Below are positions 782 through 64,000 of a DNA stretch of 64,000 nt, one piece after another. The notes under the pieces were generated by a model. It searched no databases. It saw only the letters and a program-made list of their open reading frames with translations, and was not told the origin of the DNA. Source of the stretch: Candidatus Micrarchaeota archaeon (GTDB lineage Archaea > Micrarchaeota > Micrarchaeia > Norongarragalinales > SBBD01); the NCBI GenBank assembly GCA_018819225.1, contig JAHJQN010000005.1, positions 35,286 to 99,285 on the forward strand. The letters run 5' to 3'. The position numbers were made by a program, and so were the translations under genes. Each line of letters opens with the position of its first letter. The stretch's first letter is position 1.

Positions 782-1447
782 CTATTTCGATGCGGAAAGA
801 ACGCGAGACGCGAATTCCTCGAGAGTAAAGAGCACGTGCTCTCCTTTTTTTTCCTTCTTTCGGTCCAGATAAAACGCATGCACGCCCACTTTCCTCGGAA
901 TTTGATAATCAAATTCCCAGTGATCCCCGACGTGAACGAGTTCGTGAGGTTGAATGTTAAGTTGATCCAACACGCACTGAAATCCCTGATGCTTCAATGC
1001 CTTGAAATCCGTTGGAAGCGAGTACACGTGCTGGAAATGCGCCTGCAGACCATCCACGCGAATCTTGAATTGAATGAAATCGCGCGTCGCATTCGAGATC
1101 ACGATCAACGGAAATTGTTTTCCGAGCTTTTCGAGAGCCGGAAGCGTGTCCGGATACAGGCGAATCACGTGGCTCACGTCCCGAAGGGCCTCTAAAGGAT
1201 CGGCTTTAAGTTTAAAACGTCGGAACCAGTGCCGAATGTCGTACCATTCCACGCGCTCATCTCCAACCGCCGCGAATTCCCGGTTCACGAATTGCAACGC
1301 CTCATTGAATGACAAACCGTATTGCTCGGCATACAAACGCGGGATCTCTTTCCGCCAGACCAGCGTTTCGAAATTGAGGTCTGCGAGCGTACCGTCTAAA
1401 TCAAACGAAACGTATCGGATCATAAATTCTTCCTCAATTCTCGTCAA
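782..1447 (-). CDS. HAD-superfamily hydrolase
   Basis: N-terminal FDLDGTL (DxDGT) motif I of the HAD fold; 221 aa. Confidence 0.7.
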   Translation of the reverse strand: MTRIEEEFMIRYVSFDLDGTLADLNFETLVWRKEIPRLYAEQYGLSFNEALQFVNREFAAVGDERVEWYDIRHWFRRFKLKADPLEALRDVSHVIRLYPDTLPALEKLGKQFPLIVISNATRDFIQFKIRVDGLQAHFQHVYSLPTDFKALKHQGFQCVLDQLNIQPHELVHVGDHWEFDYQIPRKVGVHAFYLDRKKEKKGEHVLFTLEEFASRVLSASK

Positions 1448-4305: not shown

Positions 4306-5766
4306 TCATCCTTTGACGACGCCGAGAGGCACCAATCGAGCCACGGGTTTGCTGATTCCCGCCATGTGCACGGCTTTAACGACTTCGTCCACGTCCTTGT
4401 ACGCGCCGCCCGCCTCCTCCGCCAGTGAACGCCAGGAAGTGGCGCGAACCGCCTGCCCTTTTTCCTCCATTTCTTTTTGCAATTGTTCTCCGCGGAAGCT
4501 TCGCAATGCTTGCTTACGGGACATGACCCGCCCGGCTCCATGACACGAACTCCCAAAACTTTCTTTCGCACCAGGAAGGCCGACTAAAACGTAGGAAGCG
4601 GTATTCATGCTTCCGGGAATGATCACGGGTTGGCCGACGTTCCGGTAAGCAGTGGGAATTTCTTTGCGTCCTTTCCAGAACGCACGGGTCGCCCCCTTGC
4701 GGTGGATGCACACTTCCTGCATTTTTCCGTTGACTTCGTGTTCCTCGAATTTGGCGATGTTGTGGCAAACGTCGTACACGAGCTCCATGCCCAAGGACTC
4801 CCACGACTGCTTGAAGACGGATGCAAAGGTTTCGCGGGCCCAATGCGCCATGTAATGGCGATTACAGAATGCATAGTTGATGGCCGCGCGCATTTGTTTC
4901 AAATAATTTTGGGCTTCCGGAGAGGAAACGGGCGCGCAGCATAACTCGGGATCCGGCAAAGAAATGCCGTACTTTTTAGCGGCTTGCAACATGACGCGCA
5001 AGTTGTCGTCGCAAACTTGGTGCCCGAAACCCCGCGAACCCGAGTGAATCATCATGGTAATCTGTCCTTCATGCGTCAAGCCGAACGCCTTCGCGGTTTC
5101 CGCATCATAGATGCGGTCGATTTTCTGCACTTCCGCGAAGTGGTTTCCGCTGCCGAGCGTACCGAACTGGGGTTTGCCGCGCTTGCGCGCCTTATCGGAA
5201 AGCAAGGAAAAATCCGCGCCTTCAAACACGCCGTTTTCCTCGCAATGCTCGGCATCCGCGGGCACCCCAAAACCCTGTTCGATGGGATACTGAACACCGG
5301 CCGTCACCGCCTCCTCAAGTTCTTGTTCCGTTAAGCGGACGCGTCCTTTCGTGCCGACTCCGCACGGAATGTTTTGAAAAAGCCCGTTCACGATTTCCTT
5401 GAGCCTGGGCTTCACATCCTCTTCAGAAAGACTCGTGCGCAGCAAACGCACGCCGCAATTAATGTCGTAACCCACGCCGCCCGGCGAAATCACGCCGTCC
5501 TCCATCGAAAACGCAGCCACGCCTCCAATGGGAAATCCGTATCCTTCATGGCCGTCGGGCATGACTTGAGCGGCCTCTAAAATTCCGGGCAGCTTCGCCA
5601 CATTGGATGCTTGCCAGAGCGTGCGATCCGAATGCAATTTGTTCAGCATTTGAGGCGTGGAATAAACGCGCACGGGAACGCGCATGCCGTCCACTGCAGG
5701 CGCTTCGTATACTCCGTTTCGAATGAGTTTCAAATCCATGAGGTATATCCACCGGTCGCCCATCAT
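4306..5766 (-). CDS. rtcB: RNA-splicing ligase RtcB
   Basis: GSGNHF, HNIAKFEEH, CHGAGR motifs; 486 aa; no intein insertion visible. Confidence 0.9.
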   Translation of the reverse strand: MMGDRWIYLMDLKLIRNGVYEAPAVDGMRVPVRVYSTPQMLNKLHSDRTLWQASNVAKLPGILEAAQVMPDGHEGYGFPIGGVAAFSMEDGVISPGGVGYDINCGVRLLRTSLSEEDVKPRLKEIVNGLFQNIPCGVGTKGRVRLTEQELEEAVTAGVQYPIEQGFGVPADAEHCEENGVFEGADFSLLSDKARKRGKPQFGTLGSGNHFAEVQKIDRIYDAETAKAFGLTHEGQITMMIHSGSRGFGHQVCDDNLRVMLQAAKKYGISLPDPELCCAPVSSPEAQNYLKQMRAAINYAFCNRHYMAHWARETFASVFKQSWESLGMELVYDVCHNIAKFEEHEVNGKMQEVCIHRKGATRAFWKGRKEIPTAYRNVGQPVIIPGSMNTASYVLVGLPGAKESFGSSCHGAGRVMSRKQALRSFRGEQLQKEMEEKGQAVRATSWRSLAEEAGGAYKDVDEVVKAVHMAGISKPVARLVPLGVVKG

Positions 5767-8572: not shown

Positions 8573-9249
8573 TACAAGCAAGCGCGTTTTAGGAAAATGG
8601 CTTAAATATCGTTTCCAGAACGTGAGATCTGAAACACCCATATTTTTATGGATTTCGAAGCCCATTAAGGCAAATGACGGGTAAAACGTTAAATACTTTG
8701 AAATCAAGAATAGGTTGGGAAGAGAAAACGCAAGAAGGGTTTCGCCTCTTTTAATAAGAGGTGATGAAGATGACGATGGAAGAACTAGTGTTACTTCTAG
8801 TCCTCTTGCTCGCCGCCGTGGTCCTGATTCCGAGATTCTTCGAAAAACAAGGGTCCAGCTCGGCTTTCAAAAAAGGTGAATTACCGCGCTTCTAGTGTTC
8901 GCGCTATAAAAGGGATTGCATGGAAGGAACATTGTTTTTGGGACTGCTCGTCGCCGGATGGATTATTAGCAGCTCGGACTTTGGAGACGCTGCAGTCATA
9001 TAACCGCCCATCGGATGAAAAGGAGCGTTAGTTGCAGCATGACCGGGACCAATAAAACATCACCGCGCATCCGCGGAGAATAGTTGAATATTAGTTACCA
9101 TATATTAGTAGTAACAATCAAGGTAGGAGTATGATCTTTGAACTGATGGCCGTTGGATTCTTGGGCGTTATTCTATACTCCCCGGTCTGACCGATGACCA
9201 CGCCGGAAAAGAGAGTCCGCTCATGAAAAGCGAACTCCCGCGATACTAA

Positions 9250-9280
9250 CGACCTTTTTCAAACAAGGTCGATAAAAAAA
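9250..9280 (-). repeat. tRNA 3'-trailer hairpin motif, copy 1
   Basis: cgacctttttcaaacaaggtcgataaaaaaa; related to the sites at 11085-11112 and 52556-52586. Confidence 0.4.
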
Positions 9281-9300
9281 TCTAGGAGCATTAAAAAAAG

Positions 9301-9420
9301 TGGGGCCGCCGAGATTTGAACTCGGATCGCTGCCACTCCGGCCTTCACGCGCCTTGCAGCTTTTGGCAGAGCGAGGGAAGGTCCCCAAGGCAGTAGGATG
9401 CCAGGTTACCCCACGGCCCC
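9301..9420 (-). tRNA. tRNA-Pro(GGG) with a canonical anticodon-loop intron of about 46 nt
   Basis: Minus strand reads GGGGCCG...CTGCC-TTGGGG-[intron]-GGCAG...CGAGTTCAAATCTCG-GCGGCCCC-A; acceptor, anticodon and T stems all pair. Confidence 0.8.
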
Positions 9421-9432
9421 CCCAAAAAAAAC

Positions 9433-9648
9433 TTAGAAGCGCGGATAATGAATGATTTCGTCCACAAGGTCTTCCTGCGAAAGCAGCATTCGGCGGCAGC
9501 AATAACGATCAAAACCAAACCGGTCCATTGTCTTGCCCGCATCCGCTTCCTTACCCAGTTCCTTGGCACGCTCCAAATCCTCGCGGTACTCGTAATACTT
9601 GTCTGCCACGACCTTACCGCACGTAAAACAACGAACCGGACACATCAT
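9433..9648 (-). CDS. rpoN: DNA-directed RNA polymerase subunit N (Rpb10)
   Basis: MMCPVRCFTCGKVV N-terminus characteristic of RpoN. Confidence 0.9.
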   Translation of the reverse strand: MMCPVRCFTCGKVVADKYYEYREDLERAKELGKEADAGKTMDRFGFDRYCCRRMLLSQEDLVDEIIHYPRF

Positions 9649-9839
9649 CGTTTCTTTCGCCTCTTTTTAAGAAAATCCTTCAACCCCTTTTCTTCAACAT
9701 TCAATGGAACACCTCTCCAAAGACATTCATCGCACTCATAAACGCCCATGTGTTCGACGACGCCTGGTACAGCCACGTCGCTGAACGAAGGCGTGCGGAG
9801 TTTCGTACTCCAACATTCCGGGCAGACATTGATTCTCAT
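9645..9839 (-). CDS. Small zinc-ribbon protein
   Basis: CPEC...CDEC Cys4 motif; 64 aa; lies between rps9 and rpoN. Confidence 0.45.
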   Translation of the reverse strand: MRINVCPECWSTKLRTPSFSDVAVPGVVEHMGVYECDECLWRGVPLNVEEKGLKDFLKKRRKKR

Positions 9840-9842
9840 GGT

Positions 9843-10298
9843 TTAACGGTACGACTTTGTAAATCTCGCGCGCGCTTTCGGTCCCTTGAACTTTTTGGGT
9901 TCCACGCGTCGCGGGTCCTCGACGAGCAGTGACCGATCGTAAGTCATGAACTGCTCTCGCAACGAATCATTCTTCGAGTATTGAACGATTGCGCGGGCTA
10001 CCGCGGTTCGGGCGGCTTGCGCCTGACCTGAAAATCCTCCGCCGCGCACGTTCACATGCACGTCGAAATCAGGATGGTCAATAAACTGCAACGGCTCGCT
10101 GACGACCTCACGCATGAACGGCGAATCGTGGGCGGTCAGCAACAATCCATTGATGTAAATTTTTCCGCTTCCGGGTTGAATGGATGCACGCGCAATGGCT
10201 TCCTTTCGCTTGCCGCGCGTCACCAGGGACTTCTTCTTTTTTCGTTTCTTTTTCTCTTCATCGGTCATAATCGTTCCATCCTCTAAATGCGTGTGCAC
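9843..10298 (-). CDS. rps9: 30S ribosomal protein S9 (uS9)
   Basis: GGGFSGQAQAAR motif and basic C-terminal ...KSYR. Confidence 0.9.
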   Translation of the reverse strand: MHTHLEDGTIMTDEEKKKRKKKKSLVTRGKRKEAIARASIQPGSGKIYINGLLLTAHDSPFMREVVSEPLQFIDHPDFDVHVNVRGGGFSGQAQAARTAVARAIVQYSKNDSLREQFMTYDRSLLVEDPRRVEPKKFKGPKARARFTKSYR

Positions 10299-10687
10299 AA
10301 TTCCTCCAAAGAAATAAATCGACAGGTTAGGGAATCCGATACGGCCTTAAATCGTTTCGCCTTTCCCGCATACTCCGAAGGCGCGCCACGGTAAGCCATG
10401 ACGCGCTTGAGGGCCTGCGTTCCACGTTCGGAATGCTTGGGGAGCATGCCCCTCACGATTCGCTTGAACAAATAGTCTTCACGCTTCGGCCACTTCGTGC
10501 TCTGATCCGGGTTGGCCTTGTTTTGAATGCGACGGCGCTTCATGTAGCGTTCAACGATCGCCTTGGGATCACCGGATAAAACGGCTTTCTCAATATGAAT
10601 GATGATCACGTCTTCGCCTTCCAGCGCGGCCTTGGCCGCAGTGGCCGCCAAGCGTCCGACAATGGCTTGAGAAGCATCAATAATCAT
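10283..10687 (-). CDS. rpl13: 50S ribosomal protein L13 (uL13)
   Basis: IIDASQAIVGRLA N-terminus typical of archaeal L13. Confidence 0.9.
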   Translation of the reverse strand: MIIDASQAIVGRLAATAAKAALEGEDVIIIHIEKAVLSGDPKAIVERYMKRRRIQNKANPDQSTKWPKREDYLFKRIVRGMLPKHSERGTQALKRVMAYRGAPSEYAGKAKRFKAVSDSLTCRFISLEELCTRI

Positions 10688-11047
10688 TTATATCACGATG
10701 ATAACGCGGGATCCCTTCGGATCTTTTTTTACGAGTTCGGGAATGGACATAACCGTACAGGACGCTTTCCGCAGTTTTTCTGCTGCGGGTTTCGCGATTT
10801 GATACGCGGCGACCGTGAATTTTTTCCGCAGGGTTCCATTGCCCAATACTTTTCCGGGAACCAATAATATTTTGTCATCATGCGCAAGAAGGTTCAGTTT
10901 GACGAGGTTGACTTCCACGCGGCGACGGCGCGGTCGGTTGAGTAATTCCACGGCGCGGTACCAGATGCCCGCCTTTTGCGCACTAGACGCTTTCGTCAAC
11001 AAGCGTATCAACCGCCTGAGTTCCGGAATTTCCGTACCGCGTTTTAC
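10688..11047 (-). CDS. rpl18e: 50S ribosomal protein L18e (eL18)
   Basis: Start taken at the internal Met (MVKRGTEIPELRRLI...) because the upstream in-frame stretch overlaps a tRNA-flank repeat; about 119 aa. Confidence 0.8.
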   Translation of the reverse strand, partial: VKRGTEIPELRRLIRLLTKASSAQKAGIWYRAVELLNRPRRRRVEVNLVKLNLLAHDDKILLVPGKVLGNGTLRKKFTVAAYQIAKPAAEKLRKASCTVMSIPELVKKDPKGSRVIIVI

Positions 11048-11084
11048 CATTTTATTCACTTTTACAAATATTATTTTTGAATGC

Positions 11085-11112
11085 GACTTTTTGATCGACC
11101 TTTTTTGAAAAA
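11085..11112 (+). repeat. tRNA 3'-trailer hairpin motif, copy 2
   Basis: gactttttgatcgaccttttttgaaaaa; a 24-nt identity with 52558-52581. Confidence 0.4.
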
Positions 11113-11161
11113 CATCATTTTCTTTTGGTGAAGCTTTTCTTTTCGAAAGAAAAGGTTCGTA

Positions 11162-11281
11162 TGCAGGGGCGGGGATTTTCATCGTTTTTCTCGAACGGAA
11201 AAAAACGGTTTTGAACCCCGGCATCCTCTACGGAACAGAGACCTCAACCCTGCGCATTTGACCAGACTCTGCCACCCCTGC
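11162..11281 (-). tRNA. tRNA-Leu(GAG) with a non-canonical intron of about 34 nt in the T-loop
   Basis: Minus strand: GCAGGGG-TG-GCA-GAGTCTGGTCAAA-TGC-G-CAGGG-TTGAGGT-CTCTG-long V arm-CGGGG-TTCAAA[intron]T-CCCCG-CCCCTGC-A; all stems pair once the insertion in the T-loop is removed. Confidence 0.65.
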
Positions 11282-11284
11282 ATC

Positions 11285-27640: not shown

Positions 27641-28078
27641 TTAAATGTCGAGAAGGATGCGAATGCGCCAGCGTCCGTTGGCTTGATGTTCGACGAGGGT
27701 TTGGTGGTGCGTCACCGCTTTCACGTGCATTTCTCCTTTTTCCGGCGAATACGGTTCGCCGCGGGCCTCGCCAACGAGACGAAAACCGTGTTCCGTTTTC
27801 TGGAATTGTCGGACGTGAAAGCTCTTGAAAAACAGTTCGGAGGAATCGCTCTCGGATAAGACATCCGACAGAACGAAATTAGTGAGTTCTTCCAGCGATT
27901 CGGCTTCCGCCCGCACCTCGAAACGATGGGATTCCTGCAAATCGTCGACGTGAGCGATCGTGGAAAACAAGGCGAGCGCGGCATGAGAAAGCGTTTCCTC
28001 GTACGTGGAACCGAACGCCTCGAACAGGACATCCGCCGTATGATCCAAAAAACGGTATTTATCTCCGAGGACCAGCAT
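27641..28078 (-). CDS. Archease
   Basis: YRFLDHTADV motif; start taken at the internal Met (MLVLGDKY), giving 146 aa; the upstream 140 codons of the ORF look non-coding. Confidence 0.8.
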   Translation of the reverse strand: MLVLGDKYRFLDHTADVLFEAFGSTYEETLSHAALALFSTIAHVDDLQESHRFEVRAEAESLEELTNFVLSDVLSESDSSELFFKSFHVRQFQKTEHGFRLVGEARGEPYSPEKGEMHVKAVTHHQTLVEHQANGRWRIRILLDI

Positions 28079-28132
28079 TTCCGAACACCATACCCATACG
28101 CTATAATAACTGCAAGGAACTAAAGCATTAAA

Positions 28133-28513
28133 ATGGTGTCTTCGAAAGGCGCTGCATACGAAAGGCAGCTCAAAAAAATGTTGGAAGGGAAAGGCTTTTT
28201 CGTGATTCGATCCGCAGGAAGCGGCGTGGACTCGACGTCGCCTGACTTGCTCGCGCTTTCTTCCGCGAAACGAATGGCGATCGAGTGCAAGGCCCGGAAT
28301 TCCGGGTACGTTTGGATTGAAGCCACTCGCATGCGGCGCATGAACGCCTTCGAGGAAAAAACCGCGATTCCGTACTATGTTGCGTGGAAGGTGGCGCGGG
28401 AGGAATGGCGGTTCTTTCCGCTGATCGCCCTCCGAGAAACGGCGAAAGCCTTCGTGATAGAGGAAAAGGACTTGCACAGCGGACTTTCTCTCGAGCAATT
28501 ACTGAACCGCTAA
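28133..28513 (+). CDS. hjc: Holliday junction resolvase Hjc
   Basis: GAAYERQLKKMLEGKGFFVIRSAGSG ... IECKAR, a restriction-endonuclease-fold motif typical of Hjc. Confidence 0.8.
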   Translation: MVSSKGAAYERQLKKMLEGKGFFVIRSAGSGVDSTSPDLLALSSAKRMAIECKARNSGYVWIEATRMRRMNAFEEKTAIPYYVAWKVAREEWRFFPLIALRETAKAFVIEEKDLHSGLSLEQLLNR

Positions 28514-52474: not shown

Positions 52475-52547
52475 GGGGCTGTGGGGTAACCTGGTATCCT
52501 GCTAGCTTCGGGAGCTAGTGATCTGAGTTCAAATCTCAGCAGCCCCA
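52475..52547 (+). tRNA. tRNA-Pro(CGG), intron-less
   Basis: GGGGCTG acceptor; anticodon stem CTAGC/GCTAG with loop TTCGGGA; T-arm CTGAG-TTCAAAT-CTCAG; CCA not encoded. Confidence 0.85.
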
Positions 52548-52555
52548 CTCTCACG

Positions 52556-52586
52556 ATTTTTGATCGACCTTTTTGAAAAGGTCGGT
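52556..52586 (+). repeat. tRNA 3'-trailer hairpin motif, copy 3
   Basis: gatttttgatcgacctttttgaaaaggtcgg (cgacctttt/aaaaggtcg stem); followed at 52592-52611 by a 19-nt repeat of the tRNA 3' end. Confidence 0.45.
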
Positions 52587-52656
52587 TGCCAAAACTCAGC
52601 AGCCCCACTACTTCTTTGGTCGACCCTCACAATATAAAAAAGCAGTATGAATTACG

Positions 52657-53667
52657 ATGGATATGGTTCGGAAATCTATTTGGATTTTTCTCTTGTTTTC
52701 AATCGCAGTTTTTGGATCCGTCAATGCCATCAACGAAACGTGTTCAAATTTGCATGGCACCCCCAACCCCGCAGAAAGCGCTCAATCCGTCGCCATCTCT
52801 TTCTTTTTTACAGGAAACGCTACGGGAACCATAACCTGCAACGGTGCTATAGACTCGAATCCACCGGTGAGCTGCTACGGTAATTCCTCTTCATGTACCG
52901 CGAACTGTGTTTGGGGGTCCGGAGGCACGTATCCAGTGGAAGCGGATTATGGATCGGCTGCGTGCAATCCATTTAATCAAACCATTAACGCGGAGGCAAC
53001 GCCGACACCGACTCCCACTCCTTCCCCCACGCCTTGGCCCACTTGTTCGAACATGAATGGAACCGTTTGTGCATTAGAAGAAATTTGTCCTGCAGATCAA
53101 TGGCTTAACGCATCGGATTCCGAGCGTTGTTGCGCGGTGGATTGTGAAGCGAATGCGACGCCAACCCCTTCCCCTACCGTGACGCCGACGCCTACGCCTC
53201 CAGGGAACGCAACCGAGTCCCCGACACCCTCGCTTACGCCCACTCCCACACTAACGCCGATTCCAACGAACACGCCGACACCGAGTCCGACGAATACGCC
53301 GGTGCCCACCGAACCCCATGTCGTTCCTTCGACGGCCACACCGTCAAGCCCAGTGCCTCCAGCTTTAGAGGAAGAAATTGAGGAATTGAGGGATCAAGTG
53401 GATGCGTTACCGGAAGGCAACGATAAGCAAGAGCTGTTCATCCTGCTTAATGAAGCGGAAGAAAACATGCAAGCCCAACAAACCAGCAAGGCGCGCGCCC
53501 TGATTCTTCAAGCGCGACTAAAAATTGCGGAAGCCGGTACGTACAAAACGGATCGCTCGACACCCATTTCATATGCGGAAATTGCGTTTGTCGGCGTGCT
53601 CGTGGCAGGAGTCGTGTGGGCGGTATCCGGGCTCATTATCCGCCGAGGAAAAATCAAACAAGCCTAG
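52657..53667 (+). CDS. Surface protein: signal peptide, Cys-rich N-domain, one copy of the 6-Cys DQWLNASD module, PT-rich stalk, C-terminal TM anchor
   Basis: Module at 53044-53148, nucleotide-level similar to the two copies inside the 1519-aa protein; TPTPSPT linkers; C-terminal AFVGVLVAGVVWAVSGLII plus RRGKIKQA. Confidence 0.7.
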   Translation: MDMVRKSIWIFLLFSIAVFGSVNAINETCSNLHGTPNPAESAQSVAISFFFTGNATGTITCNGAIDSNPPVSCYGNSSSCTANCVWGSGGTYPVEADYGSAACNPFNQTINAEATPTPTPTPSPTPWPTCSNMNGTVCALEEICPADQWLNASDSERCCAVDCEANATPTPSPTVTPTPTPPGNATESPTPSLTPTPTLTPIPTNTPTPSPTNTPVPTEPHVVPSTATPSSPVPPALEEEIEELRDQVDALPEGNDKQELFILLNEAEENMQAQQTSKARALILQARLKIAEAGTYKTDRSTPISYAEIAFVGVLVAGVVWAVSGLIIRRGKIKQA

Positions 53668-53712
53668 GAGAGCAAGGCGCTGACCCGCAAAAGCTATTTA
53701 TAGAATCGATTC

Positions 53713-54087
53713 GTGAGACAGGATATGGTCAAACATTTTGAACTCCGCGTGCTCGTCATACTATTTCTAATGATCGGGATCGCGAATCTGGTGGTCTGGC
53801 GTTCGCAGGTCTTAGCGCACGAGCTCACGCACAAAGCCATTTTTTCTGCATACGGCGTCGAGTCCGAAATCGTCATGCACGACTTCGGTTTAAGTGCGGA
53901 AACCATTCCGAACAACAATTTCACGAGCGCGGAAGACGCGAAAGTAGCGAACTTGTTGAATACGCAGACGGAGCTCATCAGCTATCATTTCTTCCCCGCG
54001 TACATTTCGAACATCATTCTTCAACTCATCTTAATTTTTGCGATTTACCGAGTAGGCCACCGCATGCAGCCTGAACCGGGGCTATAG
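53713..54087 (+). CDS. Small membrane protein with an HExxH motif (possible minimal zinc metalloprotease-like)
   Basis: TM-HELTH-...-TM architecture; 124 aa. Confidence 0.4.
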   Translation: MRQDMVKHFELRVLVILFLMIGIANLVVWRSQVLAHELTHKAIFSAYGVESEIVMHDFGLSAETIPNNNFTSAEDAKVANLLNTQTELISYHFFPAYISNIILQLILIFAIYRVGHRMQPEPGL

Positions 54088-54184
54088 CACTTGACGCGCC
54101 GTTCTTGCGACGACTCAAAGCGTTAAAAACAGTTGTTTTCATAAGATGTGAACGTGCGGCCGTGGTCTAGCTGCTTTTCTTCCT

Positions 54185-54793
54185 TTGAAGGAGAGCAAGA
54201 CAATGGTTAGGATTTGGGCCTTCCAAGCCTACGGCCCGGGTTCGAATGCGCAAGCGATGACGAGCCGAAATTCCCGGCGGCCGCACTTCCTATTCGCGAT
54301 GTTTATGGAGGAGATGCAAAGGAATCAAAACAAGTTTGTAGCTCGTTTATTGGCAATGGGTATTCACTCAGAGGGTTTTCGGCATGCCATTCCAAATAGC
54401 GTCGGGTTAGAGCACAAGCGTTTTCGACCCGCTACGGTTAAGCGAATCGTGCGCAATCTTGCCGCGCATCATTTCGGGAAAGACGCGCCGCGTTTCCAAT
54501 GGACTCGGGTAACAAGAGAACCCATAGTCCCCCGTTTTCATCCACTGAACTGGTCCCGTCGAATTAGGAGTTCGCTTTATTCGCGAAAAGTCAAAGACAT
54601 TCGCTTTGGAAGAAATCAACGGGTCATGTCCGTAGCGTTATCTCATAAGTATTTGGATCCCCTCACTATTCGCCTGATGGTGCGCGACGTGTTGGAGAAC
54701 CACTTGCATGGGGGCGGGATTTCTTACGAATTCGCCATTCAACCCAAACCAAAACGGTTGTTGGTCCGGTTTTATGAAAAGGCGCGAGGTTGA
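54185..54793 (+). CDS. Highly basic Arg/His/Trp-rich hypothetical protein
   Basis: 202 aa; no confident motif. Confidence 0.4.
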   Translation: MKESKTMVRIWAFQAYGPGSNAQAMTSRNSRRPHFLFAMFMEEMQRNQNKFVARLLAMGIHSEGFRHAIPNSVGLEHKRFRPATVKRIVRNLAAHHFGKDAPRFQWTRVTREPIVPRFHPLNWSRRIRSSLYSRKVKDIRFGRNQRVMSVALSHKYLDPLTIRLMVRDVLENHLHGGGISYEFAIQPKPKRLLVRFYEKARG

Positions 54794-54798
54794 TGGCG

Positions 54799-55197
54799 TC
54801 AACGCGTAACGTAAAACCGCACGCGAACCCATTCGACGCCGTTCCAGATCGTGCGCGTGGTAGAAAATTGTTCCGACTCTTTCGATGAATCACACGCACT
54901 TCGAACACGGTGCTCGTTCGCGTCAATTTCCATGCAATAGGTGCCCGTGGATTCCGCAAACGAATTTAATGGGTTCCGTAAAGACGCGTATCCATCTGAA
55001 ACTCCGAGCGATAAAAGCGCCAGATCCGATTCGTGATTTCGAAACGAGAGTTCCGCCACGTCCTGCACGAGTTCGTAGGAATAGATATCAACGTATCGAG
55101 GAGAATAACCGGTTCCCGAAAACAGAATGAGAAGCGACGTGGCCGCCAGTAACGTAGCCAATGCCTCGATGGTAAAAAACAGGCCTTTAGTCTTCAT
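54799..55197 (-). CDS. Archaeal type IV pilin-like protein (class III signal peptide)
   Basis: MKTKG then LFFTIEALATLLAATSLLILF: short basic leader, Gly, then a hydrophobic helix. Confidence 0.6.
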   Translation of the reverse strand: MKTKGLFFTIEALATLLAATSLLILFSGTGYSPRYVDIYSYELVQDVAELSFRNHESDLALLSLGVSDGYASLRNPLNSFAESTGTYCMEIDANEHRVRSACDSSKESEQFSTTRTIWNGVEWVRVRFYVTR

Positions 55198-55903
55198 ATC
55201 CGAAACGCGAGGAGCTCGGCGGGAGCCGGTAGCGCTGGCGCAGTGAAATAAATTCTCGGTTCAACCGTTCGTAAGCGACCGACGCGTCTTTTTCGCTAAA
55301 CAGGAAGGAAATCATTCTCCACGTGGAGAAGAAGGAAACGATGTTGATGCCTTCCAGTTTTTGTAAGAAATAAAGGTATACGCCCGGCGTGTGGATGACG
55401 CCTTCATCGTAAGCGACGGAGAACAGCGTCAGGTTTTCCACGAATTCCATGACCTGTTTTTCGGGAGCCAGCTTTAACAAGTCCGGAAGGAACTTCTTGC
55501 TGACAATCACGAGAATTTCCTCCGAACGCTGGATCACGTACATTTTTTCGCCCATCTCCCAACGCACTTTCGTCGACGCAAATTCCGCCAATTTTTTGTA
55601 CAATTGCGAGGTGCGAACGAAGTAAATGTTCGCCATCTGCTCGCGCACCAAAAGCGTGCAATGGGATAGCAATTCCTCCAATTTCTTGGACTCCCTGGAA
55701 TCCAGCGAGTGCGCCACGAATCGGCGCGACGCCATGACGATGGCATCCTCGCTCACCGGATTGTTTCCGAGTTTTTGTTGCACGTACGGCTTGAGGTAAC
55801 GCGCCAAAGCGGAATAGTTGATGAGGCCTTCCCTCATCGCGGGATGCATCGAGTGCAAGCCTTCTAATATCTCGTATACGGCATCGGATACGCTCGTCTT
55901 CAT
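55187..55903 (-). CDS. Hypothetical protein co-transcribed upstream of the pilin gene
   Basis: 238 aa, soluble; overlaps the pilin start by 11 nt. Confidence 0.5.
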   Translation of the reverse strand: MKTSVSDAVYEILEGLHSMHPAMREGLINYSALARYLKPYVQQKLGNNPVSEDAIVMASRRFVAHSLDSRESKKLEELLSHCTLLVREQMANIYFVRTSQLYKKLAEFASTKVRWEMGEKMYVIQRSEEILVIVSKKFLPDLLKLAPEKQVMEFVENLTLFSVAYDEGVIHTPGVYLYFLQKLEGINIVSFFSTWRMISFLFSEKDASVAYERLNREFISLRQRYRLPPSSSRFGYED

Positions 55904-61240: not shown

Positions 61241-62203
61241 TTTTAAGCTAAATACTTAACCTGCGCGAATTTGCGATTTGCGTAGCTGGTTGCTGTAGTC
61301 CCGGCGAATCGAAGCTCGTGCTATGACCGATTCCTTGAGCGGTCCCTTGATCTATGATAGGGCGTATTACGCTCCATTCCACTACAGCGGCCGATGGGAA
61401 TGTGAGCAATCGTTTTGAATCACGATTCACGTTCGACGGACGCGGACCTCAACGCCAAAATAAATCGTTTAGTTCTTTGCGACTCGTAATTCGCAATCAG
61501 TTAAATTCAGTACGGATTGCACACGCGCTCTTCCGAGAGGGAGAGTGGCGTGTAACACCAGTTGATCCTGCTGGAGGATATTGCTATCAGAATTCGACTA
61601 AGCCATGCAAGTCAGTGTTACCACCTGGTAACACGGCGAACGGCTCAGTAACGCGTACTTAACTTACCCTAGGCAGGCGAATAACTTCGGGAAACTGAAG
61701 GGAATACGCCGTAGGAAACAATTTCTGGAACGAAGTGTTTCTTAAAGTGCTCCGAATTGTAGGAGTTACGGCCTAGGATGGGAGTGCGTCTGATTAGGCT
61801 GTTGGTGGGGTAAAGGCCCACCAAACCGATAATCAGTAGGAGCTATGGGAGTAGAAGCTCCGAGATGGGCACTGAGACAAGGGCCCAAGCCCTACGGGGT
61901 GCAGCAGGCGCGAAATTTCCGCAATGCGCGCAAGCGTGACGGGGGAATTCTGAGTGCTTCTCTTACGAGAAGCTTTTGCTTAGCTTGAATCGCTAGGCGA
62001 ATAAGGAGTGGGTAAATCCTGTGCCAGCCGCCGCGGTAATACAGGTAGTCCAAGTGATATCCACGAATACTGAGTCTAAAGCGCTCGTAGCGGGTTCGGC
62101 AAGTTCTCTGTGAAATCTTCAAGCTCAACTTGAAGGCGTGCAGGGAATACTACCAGACTTGGGAGTGGGGGAGGCCAAGGGTACTTTAGGGGGAGGAGTA
62201 AAA

Positions 62204-62260
62204 CGACCTTTTCTTTCAAAAAGAAAAGCTCGACCAAAAGAAATCGACATGTCGTACTCA
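62204..62260 (+). repeat. 57-nt palindromic insertion inside 16S (between GGAGTAAAA and TCCTGTAATCC); a copy of the element next to tRNA-Leu
   Basis: cgaccttttctttcaaaaagaaaagctcgaccaaaagaaatcga... versus 11113-11160 (rc) acgaaccttttctttcgaaaagaaaagcttcaccaaaagaaaatga... Confidence 0.5.
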
Positions 62261-62477
62261 AAATCCTGTAATCCTTAAAGGACCTTCAGTAGCGAAGGCG
62301 CTTGGCCAAAACACGTCCGACCGTGAGGAGCGAAGGCCAGGGGAGCAAATCGGATTAGATACCCGAGTAGTCCTGGCAGTAAATGATGCAGACTAGGCAT
62401 TGCAATGGTTTCGAACTGTTGCAGGGCCGTAGGGAAGCTGATAAGTCTGCCACTTGGGGAGTACGGTCGCAAGACTT

Positions 62478-62518
<41 letters not shown>

Positions 62519-63061
62519 TGCTGCGGTTCAATTGGACTCAACGCCGGGAAACTCACCAGGAGAGACAGCAGAATGAAGCTCAGGCTAAAGACCTTAGCTG
62601 ACAAGCTGAGAGGTGTTGCATGGCCAGCGTCAGTTCGTGCCGTGAGGTGTCAAGTTAAGTCTTGCAACGAACGAGATCTTCATCCACAGTTGCCAGTTTC
62701 GCGGTAACGCGGAGCGCACTCTGTGGAAACTGCCTGCGTTAAGTAGGAGGAAGGAGAAGGCGACGCTAGGTCTGTATGGCCCGAATCTCCTGGGCCACAC
62801 GTGGCATACAATGGCGGAGACAATGGGTTCCGACGCCGAAAGGCGAAGGTAATCTCCGAAACTCCGTCTAAGTCCGGATTGGGGGCTGAAACTCGTCCCC
62901 ATGAAGCTGGAATCCCTAGTAATCGCGTGTCATCATCGCGCGGTGAATATGTCCCCGCTCCTTGCACACACCGCCCGTCAAGTCAACCAAGCGAGGCTTT
63001 AGTGAGGCTTGGTCTTCGGATCAAGTCGAGCTAGAACTTTGTAAGGTGGATTAAGTCGTAA

Positions 63062-63830
63062 GAACGTTGCGACCTCGGATCTGTGAGGATTTGAGAAAAA
63101 ATCTGCTATATGCTGGAAACCCCGAGCATCTCAGGCTACCATCGGAAACGACGCTTCGGAATGAATATCATTCTCGAAGAAATTCAGTTGGTGAAAATGT
63201 TTTGAGTGCGGGCAATCAGCAGGGAAGTCGGCGCGAAAGCGCTTGACCCCTCAGAGACTACACGCAGACTTCTATAGTGCAAGAGAACATGAAGGCATAT
63301 CTCCTTGGCGCGCTACACGATGGCTCCAATCACGGTAACACGTACCGAATCGTCCAAAAAGAAGAAGAATACGTCCGCTGGATTGCGGATGAACTTCATC
63401 AAATGGGCATTTCGGCATGGGTTTATCGGGAAGGAGCTGAACGACATTTATTCGTCGTCGAGTTCTCGAAAAGTCGGTTATCGGAAATCAAGATCAATAG
63501 TCTTGAAGAGAAAACTGAATACATTCGAGGATACTTCGATGCCGAAGGTAGCGTACCATTGAAATCGGGAGCCAGAATGTACATTTATTTCTGCCAAAAA
63601 GACCGAAAGGATCTGGAAGAAGTAAAAACATTCTTGGAAGAACTTGGAATCGTTTGTGGAAAAACCCACAATCCAACGTTCAAAGAACCTGATTATTGGA
63701 GATTCTTCATTGGATGTAAATCCTACAAAGCATTTGCATCTAAAATTGGTTCTCGCCATCCTCGAAAGAGGAAAGTACTCGAGAAGATGATATAGTCCAT
63801 GCCGCGCAGCGATGCGTGGAAGAACATGAA
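63062..63830 (+). mobile_element. 16S rRNA intron near the 3' end (after AAGTCGTAA), carrying a homing endonuclease ORF
   Basis: The 16S consensus AAGTCGTAACAAGGTAGCCGTAGGGGAACC is restored when 63062-63830 is removed. Confidence 0.8.
63277..63795 (+). CDS. LAGLIDADG-family homing endonuclease (double-motif, monomeric type)
   Basis: YLLGALHDGS (motif 1) and IRGYFDAEGS (motif 2) roughly 95 aa apart; 172 aa. Confidence 0.85.
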   Translation: MQENMKAYLLGALHDGSNHGNTYRIVQKEEEYVRWIADELHQMGISAWVYREGAERHLFVVEFSKSRLSEIKINSLEEKTEYIRGYFDAEGSVPLKSGARMYIYFCQKDRKDLEEVKTFLEELGIVCGKTHNPTFKEPDYWRFFIGCKSYKAFASKIGSRHPRKRKVLEKMI

Positions 63831-63969: not shown

Positions 63970-64000
63970 GGGCTCGTGGCGCAGTGGTAGCGCGCCTGCT
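63970..64000 (+). tRNA. 5' part of a spacer tRNA (probably tRNA-Ala), truncated by the window end
   Basis: GGGCTCG-TG-GCGC-AGTGGTA-GCGC-G-CCTGC...; in the position of the archaeal 16S-23S spacer tRNA-Ala; anticodon not reached. Confidence 0.5.

Follow-up and report, generated by a model that had tools for sequence, protein, structure and literature searches.

Copies of a short palindromic module at stable-RNA genes of a Micrarchaeota archaeon

The stretch of DNA analysed here (the window) comprises 64,000 nucleotides (nt) from a Candidatus Micrarchaeota archaeon (contig JAHJQN010000005.1, positions 35,286 to 99,285). It is archaeal, with a 16S rRNA gene at 61555-63107 (Rfam) and ~51% G+C, and encoded proteins identical to NCBI entries for Candidatus Micrarchaeota archaeon place the organism in the DPANN group. 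The window contains three tRNA genes that are each accompanied by a copy of a short palindromic element, hereafter the module, which consists of an oligo-T run, (G/T)AT, the 5-bp stem CGACC, a T-run/A-run loop that extends the stem, and GGTCG. An initial annotation had named these genes as tRNA-Pro(GGG), tRNA-Leu and tRNA-Pro(CGG), and ARAGORN bore out all three, two of them with introns; default runs of ARAGORN and Rfam on the window detected tRNA-Pro(CGG) alone. The genes and the module copies beside them are:

tRNA-Pro(GGG): 9300-9420, minus strand, with a canonical intron of 47 nt; found by ARAGORN with introns allowed
tRNA-Leu(GAG): 11162-11282, minus strand, with a T-loop (59/60) intron of ~33 nt; found by ARAGORN after in-silico intron removal
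tRNA-Pro(CGG): 52475-52548, plus strand, intron-free; found by ARAGORN and Rfam
Module copy 1, Pro(GGG): 9250-9280, minus strand, T7-AT-CGACC-TTGTTTGAAAAA-GGTCG in tRNA sense
Module copy 2, Leu: 11088-11112, plus strand, T5-GAT-CGACC-T6-G-A5, without the 3' arm
Module copy 3, Pro(CGG): 52557-52584, plus strand, T5-GAT-CGACC-TTTTTGAAAA-GGTCG, a complete hairpin

All three copies lie 8-77 nt downstream of a tRNA 3' end, that is, outside the mature tRNA. Copy 1 begins 20 nt past the end of tRNA-Pro(GGG), with a separate T7 run directly 3' of the tRNA, and is placed between convergent transcription units. With up to three mismatches allowed, ATCGACCTTTTTGAAAA matched in the window at these three sites only; counted on both strands, 5 matches were observed against 0.49 expected, and none of 100 shuffles gave 5 or more. 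No further CGACC copies were present in the 75.6 kb of contig covered, and the association with tRNA genes was non-random, each of the three sites lying <80 nt from one of the three tRNAs. As judged by sequence, the window copies are homologous and belong to one repeat family. Both proline copies fold as hairpins (copy 1, -10.5 kcal/mol, z -2.4; copy 3, -13.3 kcal/mol, z -2.9). The leucine copy is without the GGTCG arm, gave no hairpin (z +0.6 and -0.2) and, because it is on the plus strand and tRNA-Leu on the minus strand, is inverted relative to its tRNA. The initial annotation had described a related hairpin element 3' of all three tRNAs, which holds for the two proline copies and not for the inverted, armless and unfolded leucine copy. 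It had also reported a 24-nt identity (tttttgatcgacctttttgaaaa) between the leucine and Pro(CGG) copies, which was not borne out: tttttgatcgacctttttgaaaa is absent from the leucine copy, which has T6 where Pro(CGG) has T5. Exact identity between the two extends over 18 nt (TTTTTGATCGACCTTTTT), or over 23/24 positions when the alignment admits one 1-nt indel.

Copy 3 lies between two direct repeats, recovered by repeat and pattern searches, that match exactly over 15 nt and over 20 nt with one mismatch, and are separated by a gap of 40 nt:

Direct repeat copy 1: 52530-52549, plus strand, CAAATCTCAGCAGCCCCACT, from the T-loop to the tRNA 3' end plus one trailer base past 52548
Direct repeat copy 2: 52590-52609, plus strand, CAAAACTCAGCAGCCCCACT, 19/20 identical, a displaced or duplicated tRNA 3' fragment

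Adjoining the GGTCG arm, the downstream fragment, GTT-GC-CAAAACTCAG..., corresponds to the tRNA from about position 53 onwards (junction read by eye). In pattern searches of the window, no tRNA 3' end turned up a third time. Duplication of the tRNA-Pro(CGG) 3' end could mislead the annotation of tRNA ends, attachment (att) sites and integrated elements. Further 3' of this tRNA, at 52657-55903, five consecutive open reading frames (ORFs) gave no Pfam match, and the first of them had no homologue but itself among 5.8 billion proteins; the region may be a variable island adjoining the tRNA gene. A large integrated element at tRNA-Pro(CGG) was considered and rejected, with no further tRNA-end copy in the window and no Pfam match for the five ORFs.

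Two related modules with a partly different sequence occur in the window, one as a trailer of tRNA-Leu and one in the 16S rRNA gene:

Subfamily-2 module: 11119-11160, minus strand, directly 3' of tRNA-Leu, GAACC-TTTTCTTT-CGA-AAAGAAAAG-CTTC-ACC-AAAAGAAA
16S insertion of 60 nt in the h23 loop: 62204-62263, plus strand, begins CGACC-TTTTCTTT-CAA-AAAGAAAAG-CTCG-ACC-AAAAGAAA

The tRNA-Leu trailer module forms a 13-bp stem with 12/13 positions paired (inverted-repeat search), and the module in the 16S insertion is identical to it at 35 of 41 positions, as counted from the two matched sequences, which have a 38-nt pattern in common. The boundaries of the insertion are ambiguous by 4 nt (AAAA), and the Rfam small-subunit rRNA alignment shows a 61-nt insert. 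In a related Micrarchaeota 16S gene (L191) the insertion point is uninterrupted, with GGAGGGGTAAAA joined directly to TCCTGTAATCC, and by sequence comparison the two genes are a filled-site/empty-site pair. Base pairing is possible between UACUC at its 3' end and GAGUA in the upstream exon, which makes the insertion a candidate small splicing-endonuclease intron; AGUA/UACU and CGAC/GUCG pairings, traced by eye, are absent from the minimum-energy fold.

Overall, the family members of the host genome in the 75.6 kb number three of the CGACC type, two of subfamily 2 and one degenerate, all at RNA genes; in this sample the family is restricted to stable-RNA genes. The sole further tRNA in the additional 11.6 kb of contig is tRNA-Ala(TGC) in the 16S-23S spacer, which has a stemless look-alike of the module, TCGATTTTTTCTTTTTGAAAAAAAG, on its 3' side. 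The window end cuts this gene (window ~63970-64000 and beyond; L196 5826-5897, minus strand), and its T-loop intron ends GATGAAA, as does the tRNA-Leu intron. The rRNA operon also encodes two LAGLIDADG homing-endonuclease ORFs (window 63289-63795, equal to L196 6072-6578, and L196 2961-3560), one within the 23S gene and the other between the 16S 3' end and the spacer tRNA-Ala. Elsewhere in the window are genes for the tRNA-splicing ligase RtcB (4306-5766, minus strand) and its cofactor archease (27641-28498, minus strand), in keeping with many intron-bearing RNA genes.

Around the first two copies, 9433-11282 on the minus strand is a conserved cluster of tRNA-Leu(GAG), rpl18e, rpl13, rps9, rpoN and tRNA-Pro(GGG), with tRNA-Leu first, as read from ORF translations; its Pfam families were found on the same cluster in L195. 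An imperfect 16-nt direct repeat (13/16) brackets tRNA-Pro(GGG) at 9274-9289 and 9425-9440; its tRNA-sense sequence is GCTTCTAAGTTTTTTT immediately ahead of the tRNA and GCTCCTAGATTTTTTT immediately ahead of the hairpin. After copy 1, a decayed tRNA 3' fragment was sought and dismissed, the similarity to the tRNA's own 3' part (10/21, P=0.02) being too weak. A 22-codon ORF (MIFELMAVGFLGVILYSPV...; 9132-9200, plus strand), with GGTAGGAG as a ribosome-binding-like sequence, converges on copy 1 and may encode a small membrane peptide or have arisen by chance.

We searched for the module elsewhere with the pattern TTTTTNATCGACCTTN{2,5}GAAAA in one genome per species and with GATCGACCTTN{2,7}AAAAGGTCG in metagenomes. 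The genome scan returned 68 loci, mostly chance matches in bacteria; among archaeal full hairpins, five touched tRNA sequence (L020, L039, L046, L042 and L068), as did L067, where the hairpin is split by a nested insertion. The metagenome scan returned >119 loci, many of them without taxonomic assignment, which fell into three classes. Class A consists of ~70 loci from gut Clostridia/Eubacteriales (L003, L014, L024, L058, L065 and L071-L188) with AAAGTTTTTGATCGACCTTTTTTCAAAAAGGTCG at the end of intergenic elements of ~400 nt, whose many GC-rich hairpins together make up one large inverted repeat; at the other end is a hairpin in mirror image whose stem differs, e.g. CAAAC/GTTTG-ATC-AAAA. With no tRNA nearby and no Rfam match, these multi-hairpin palindromes were treated as a separate bacterial family caught by the pattern. 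Class B comprises AT-rich contigs in which the module or variants with other stems occupy nearly every intergenic gap in both orientations, at a density of 2-4 copies per 2-5 kb or ~1 per gap. At least some of these contigs are archaeal, as eRF1 and Pno1-type KH proteins are encoded on L073 and L092; on L154 and L175 a conserved ORF, which we take to be rpl19e, starts after the hairpin. Class C comprises copies at RNA genes: of the 37 archaeal or unassigned loci with a T-run-bearing copy, 13 were in a tRNA gene or ≤250 nt from one, and one was in an RNase P RNA (L140). In the 75.6 kb, every CGACC-type copy is at a tRNA 3' flank, as the proposed enrichment would have it; elsewhere only the 13 of 37 loci are tRNA-associated, and in these the module precedes the gene, follows it or is within it. 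Genes for tRNA with flanks of this kind were estimated at a few percent of a genome. On sequence similarity, the module is part of a wider hairpin family in DPANN and other archaea.

Copies at tRNA genes adopt three arrangements. At canonical introns, CGACC stands directly after position 38 and is followed by the loop, GGTCG, ATC and A5; 37/38 is the canonical tRNA intron site. Such intron copies are found in three different tRNAs of three genomes, namely tRNA-Arg(CCT) in L042, tRNA-Lys(TTT) in L114 with two inverted hairpins, and an Aenigmatarchaeota tRNA in L067 whose anticodon, TCC (Gly), was read by eye. In the upstream arrangement (L046, L039, L068, L079, L115, L120 and L165), a short tRNA 5' fragment, which often has 5-6 leader bases and ends after G18G19, is followed by CGACC-loop-GGTCG-ATC-A4-5, by 13-30 nt of unrelated filler and by the intact tRNA. 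The downstream arrangement (window Pro(CGG) and L020) has the intact tRNA, filler, T-run-GAT-hairpin and a 3' fragment from about position 53. In every case a tRNA piece broken within a loop adjoins the GGTCG end, and variable filler is found on the T-run/A-run side; breakpoints of the fragments at the hairpin end are in the D-loop, at 37/38 and at ~53/54. Interruption of a mature RNA was limited to the related 16S insertion and the external copies in L042, L067 and L114. The module in L020 was also considered as the T-stem intron of a second tRNA-Ser, and its removal yielded no tRNA.

In L140, positions 853-1166 (minus strand) matched archaeal RNase P RNA weakly but over its full length (RF00373; 33.5 bits, gathering threshold 84, E 3e-6), and in the 5' part of this weak match TTTTGAT-CGACC...GGTCG occupies the P3 position, directly before GAGGAAAGTC and the conserved GAGGAAAGUC. 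This locus apart, no known RNA family covered the module when the window and the 37 loci were searched with 4227 Rfam covariance models.

Many copies are bracketed by what, from sequence alone, is duplicated target sequence. Exact flanking direct repeats of 10-21 nt occur at L020, L046, L068, L115, L120 and L165, and a 14-nt repeat was read by eye at L079; in all, at least nine external copies are bracketed by direct repeats of the target. Two of these repeats are outside tRNA genes: 19 nt around a 134-nt insert in L118 (1275-1408), ~120 nt upstream of tRNA-Lys, and 11 nt around a 141-nt insert in L136 (5721-5861). In L098, positions 1-260 hold a tandem array of at least three identical 101-nt units, each with the hairpin at its end and followed by a 38-nt partial unit; unequal recombination seems to have multiplied an insertion that had a flanking repeat of 38 nt. 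The inserts of L118 and L136, together with L143 469-586, represent a long form of ~118-141 nt in which two GC-rich hairpins, differing by compensatory changes, precede TTTT-GAT-hairpin (fold z -7.7); its predicted fold could be that of a small structured RNA. The possibility that all copies are 5'-truncated versions of one long element was rejected, as the filler on the T-run side is unrelated between loci and extra hairpins occur in L118, L136 and L143 only.

Stem conservation was assessed in archaeal loci with a pattern of T-run, GAT, five free bases, T-run/A-run and five free bases, from which CGACC was excluded. This search, which did not require pairing, found 10 copies, and 49 of 50 stem positions were complementary. 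The stems were of five types (GAACC/GGTTC, CAACC/GGTTG, CAAAC/GTTTG, AAACC/GGTTT and AGAAC/GTTCG), so that, on this sequence comparison, the hairpin stem is conserved via compensatory changes and structure is kept rather than sequence. Occupancy also differs between orthologous loci. The metagenome-assembled genome JAOZPI01 (L046) has the module 5' of the orthologous tRNA-Leu(GAG), with a 19-nt repeat, and its orthologous tRNA-Pro(GGG) has no module and a different small hairpin instead. At five other Micrarchaeota loci with the same cluster (L13 protein 51-63% identical), the CGACC module was at neither tRNA. The orthologous tRNA-Leu and tRNA-Pro genes of relatives carry long D-loop and T-loop introns made of similar T-run/A-run hairpins. 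By this comparison, copies have been gained and lost at orthologous loci.

We consider it about an even call that the three sites of the window are copies of a ~30-nt palindromic module, either like repetitive extragenic palindromes (REPs) and miniature inverted-repeat transposable elements (MITEs) or like mobile introns, that spreads by insertion or recombination at stable-RNA genes. In the manner of those elements, it would enter or settle beside highly structured RNA genes. Copies within a mature RNA would be tolerated because the splicing endonuclease removes them as introns, and copies in a leader or trailer would be harmless. Module T-runs may also act as the oligo-dT stop of the adjacent tRNA gene, a role that is plausible because every copy has a T-run of at least 5 in either orientation; judging from these runs, the module probably doubles as a terminator. 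Spread could be mediated by RNA or complementary DNA (cDNA) or by break repair, and an RNA intermediate would account for the variable repeats, the precise hairpin end and the heterogeneous other end. Among the roles first proposed for the element, a recombination or integration site gained the most support, from the target repeats at copy 3 and at the external copies and from orthologues without the element. We are more doubtful of a broader version, in which a mobile hairpin module of DPANN archaea prefers the loops and ends of stable-RNA genes (tRNA, 16S rRNA and RNase P RNA); its insertions within mature RNA would become non-canonical splicing-endonuclease introns and those near the ends would leave duplicated tRNA fragments.

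Several results weigh against mobility. Neither the 28 largest ORFs of the window nor the surroundings of the copies yielded a transposase, integrase, reverse transcriptase or Cas1 domain, and the same 28 ORFs included no transposase of the RAYT (REP-associated tyrosine transposase; Y1 HUH) type. The module pattern had no match in 2.9 million viral contigs, and a viral or proviral origin was rejected on that account. Repeat lengths range overall from 10 to 38 nt and the filler opposite the hairpin is heterogeneous (7-117 nt), a combination that fits no known transposase; we know of none that would produce a variable repeat length, a precise hairpin end and a heterogeneous other end. In L115, L046 and L068 the fragment has diverged more on its hairpin side than at its far end, which suggests recombination with a heterologous tRNA-like piece and not simple target duplication. 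No clear flanking repeat accompanies copy 1 or copy 2. The host-genome sample was 75.6 kb of a 709-kb metagenomic contig, ena:ERZ27247117:k141_304414 (the 64-kb window plus 11.6 kb), and because CGACC was fixed in both scans, the identity of the stem across lineages is partly ascertainment.

The module could instead be a selected cis-acting terminator or 3'-end module of tRNA genes, in which oligo-T stops the polymerase, the hairpin stabilises or marks the 3' end, and selection or gene conversion rather than mobility keeps the copies similar. Oligo-dT is the archaeal transcription termination signal, and every free-standing tRNA observed in the host genome has T-rich runs 2-10 nt downstream. 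On the sense strand, T7 runs stand at +2 and +21 from tRNA-Pro(GGG), T5 at +9 from tRNA-Pro(CGG), and an interrupted TTTTCTTT at +9 and T5 at about +57 from tRNA-Leu; T5-7 runs are present in both module orientations, the spacer tRNA-Ala is followed by the stemless TCGATTTTTTCTTTTTGAAAAAAAG, and copy 1 has convergent neighbours. Nevertheless, modules bearing T4-T6 lie within introns of tRNAs that must be read through (L042, L114 and L067) and within 16S rRNA, others are upstream of tRNAs, one window copy is inverted and has lost its stem, orthologous tRNAs of relatives do without the module, and the target duplications are left unexplained. We regard this explanation as unlikely, and the dedicated tRNA 3' signal of the initial annotation is not supported, because the module also occurs upstream of tRNAs, in tRNA introns, in the 16S insertion, at the P3 position of an RNase P RNA and in the majority of intergenic gaps in AT-rich archaeal contigs. 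A general role as a promoter was rejected too, with the loop ~14-83 nt from the tRNA 5' end or start codon and in both orientations. A more improbable account, which overlaps with the preferred one of an inserting module, sees in the flank copies what remains of non-canonical tRNA introns (D-loop, 53/54 and 59/60) whose exon-side end was the hairpin, and holds that partial duplication or recombination with an intron-less, possibly cDNA, copy restored the tRNA and left the old fragment beside it. The hairpin does abut fragments exactly at intron hot spots (after G18G19, 37/38 and ~53/54), of which 53/54, like 59/60, is documented for Micrarchaeum (PMC3239211). The start of the duplicated segments, often 5-6 nt ahead of the tRNA, resembles the 5' end of a transcript, the tRNA-Leu and tRNA-Pro genes of relatives carry long introns of similar hairpins, and an extended Pro(CGG) transcript can pair the acceptor 5' strand with the second 3' copy. 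This account is at odds with the repeat-flanked copies outside tRNA genes (L118, L136 and L098), with copies that fill most intergenic gaps of AT-rich contigs, with the lack of a demonstrated bulge-helix-bulge motif (judged by eye) and with the absence of a reverse transcriptase among the 28 ORFs.

Two further explanations are, in our judgement, very improbable. One is that the module acts at the RNA level as a protein-binding site, the single-stranded R-A/G-U4-7-G-A-U beside a stem-loop matching the Sm-site consensus (RAU4-6GR) and putatively recruiting an Sm-like protein, chaperone or nuclease to pre-tRNA, pre-rRNA, RNase P RNA or mRNA leaders. Copy 3 does have GAUUUUUGAU plus a stem-loop, the long form has UUUUGAU between two stem-loops, the module unit forms the region just before P4 in the weak RNase P RNA match of L140, every context is transcribed, and the stems covary; Archaeoglobus Sm proteins are reportedly associated with RNase P RNA. 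Copies occur, however, in both orientations relative to the host transcript, so that half would read A-run/AUC instead of U-run/GAU, and target duplications at the DNA level are unexplained. Least probable of all, we would read the repeats as scars of tyrosine-integrase (attL/attR) or casposon-like Cas1 integration, with the hairpin as the end of a largely deleted element. The repeat from T-loop to 3' end at tRNA-Pro(CGG) resembles att cores, some fragments differ from the adjacent tRNA near the hairpin as hybrid att sites would, and there are precedents in Caldiarchaeum (PMC3293823) and in an Aciduliprofundum casposon (PMC5137440). Against this, only 40-140 nt separate the repeats, no integrase, casposase or polymerase (including PolB) was found in the window, no third tRNA-end copy is present there, repeat length varies from 10 to 38 nt, and the module is absent from the viral contigs; moreover, the duplications differ in position, that of the casposon sharing 5 bp with the tRNA and continuing downstream, the present one extending from the T-loop to one base past the 3' end.

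Intron transposition and mobile-element integration have been put forward to explain how archaea came by non-canonical tRNA introns, split tRNAs and scattered tRNA fragments. With the module, one sequence family ties together tRNA introns, a 16S insertion, duplicated tRNA ends at intron hot spots and differences between orthologous loci. If mobile, the module offers a concrete and testable agent of tRNA gene disruption in DPANN archaea. Should the broader version hold, the disruption of tRNA genes would have a source open to direct observation, and Archaea would have their first described REP-like repeat family. On the practical side, default tRNA finders miss two of the three tRNAs here.

Among known systems, the module resembles bacterial REPs, REPINs and MITEs in being a palindrome of 25-35 nt with a conserved tag at one foot (here T-run plus GAT), in the compensatory changes of its stem, in its occurrence in both orientations and as inverted pairs (the L114 intron and L179), and in reaching ~1 copy per gap in AT-rich archaeal contigs. 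It differs from them in its archaeal host, in its tag (T)GAT, in that no RAYT or other transposase was found among the 28 largest ORFs of the window, and in having few copies in the host genome, at stable-RNA genes only (75.6 kb); by definition the REP tag is GTAG or CGTC (PMC3733652). Unlike REPs and IS200/IS605-type elements, it is often flanked by long target duplications of variable length. The T5-7 runs directly downstream of tRNA genes on the sense strand are those of archaeal oligo-dT terminators, which need no conserved sequence or hairpin, whereas the module is a conserved palindrome that is also found inverted, upstream and inside read-through genes. As at integrase att sites, a tRNA segment is directly repeated to the left and right of an insert (19/20 at tRNA-Pro(CGG)); in contrast to them, no integrase-bearing element lies between the repeats. 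At a Caldiarchaeum tRNA-Thr locus, a recombinase element of 1.8 kb stands between a tRNA 5' fragment and the intact tRNA that follows (PMC3293823), and an Aciduliprofundum casposon has a 15-bp duplication at a tRNA-Pro 3' end next to a T-loop palindrome (PMC5137440). Both the order of fragment, insert and intact tRNA and the duplication of ~15-20 nt at a tRNA-Pro 3' end beside a T-loop palindrome recur here. Unlike integrative elements and casposons, the insert is gene-free and of 40-140 nt, the duplication differs in length and position, and no recombinase or casposase was found; for casposons specifically, no terminal inverted repeats of their type were seen and neither Cas1 nor PolB was found in the window. 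Bulge-helix-bulge introns differ from the module in that its three window copies are outside the mature tRNA, exon ends are duplicated alongside, and elsewhere it is also intergenic. In Micrarchaeum, 56% of tRNA genes are disrupted, introns occur at 53/54 and 59/60, and a broad-specificity epsilon2 endonuclease cuts relaxed motifs (PMC3239211). The present system is like that one in that the phylum has the epsilon2 endonuclease and the window encodes RtcB and archease. As with transposed bulge-helix-bulge introns, including those of ARMAN-2, related modules occupy different sites of different RNA genes, here position 37/38 in three tRNAs, the h23 loop of 16S rRNA, and D-loop and 53/54 junctions.

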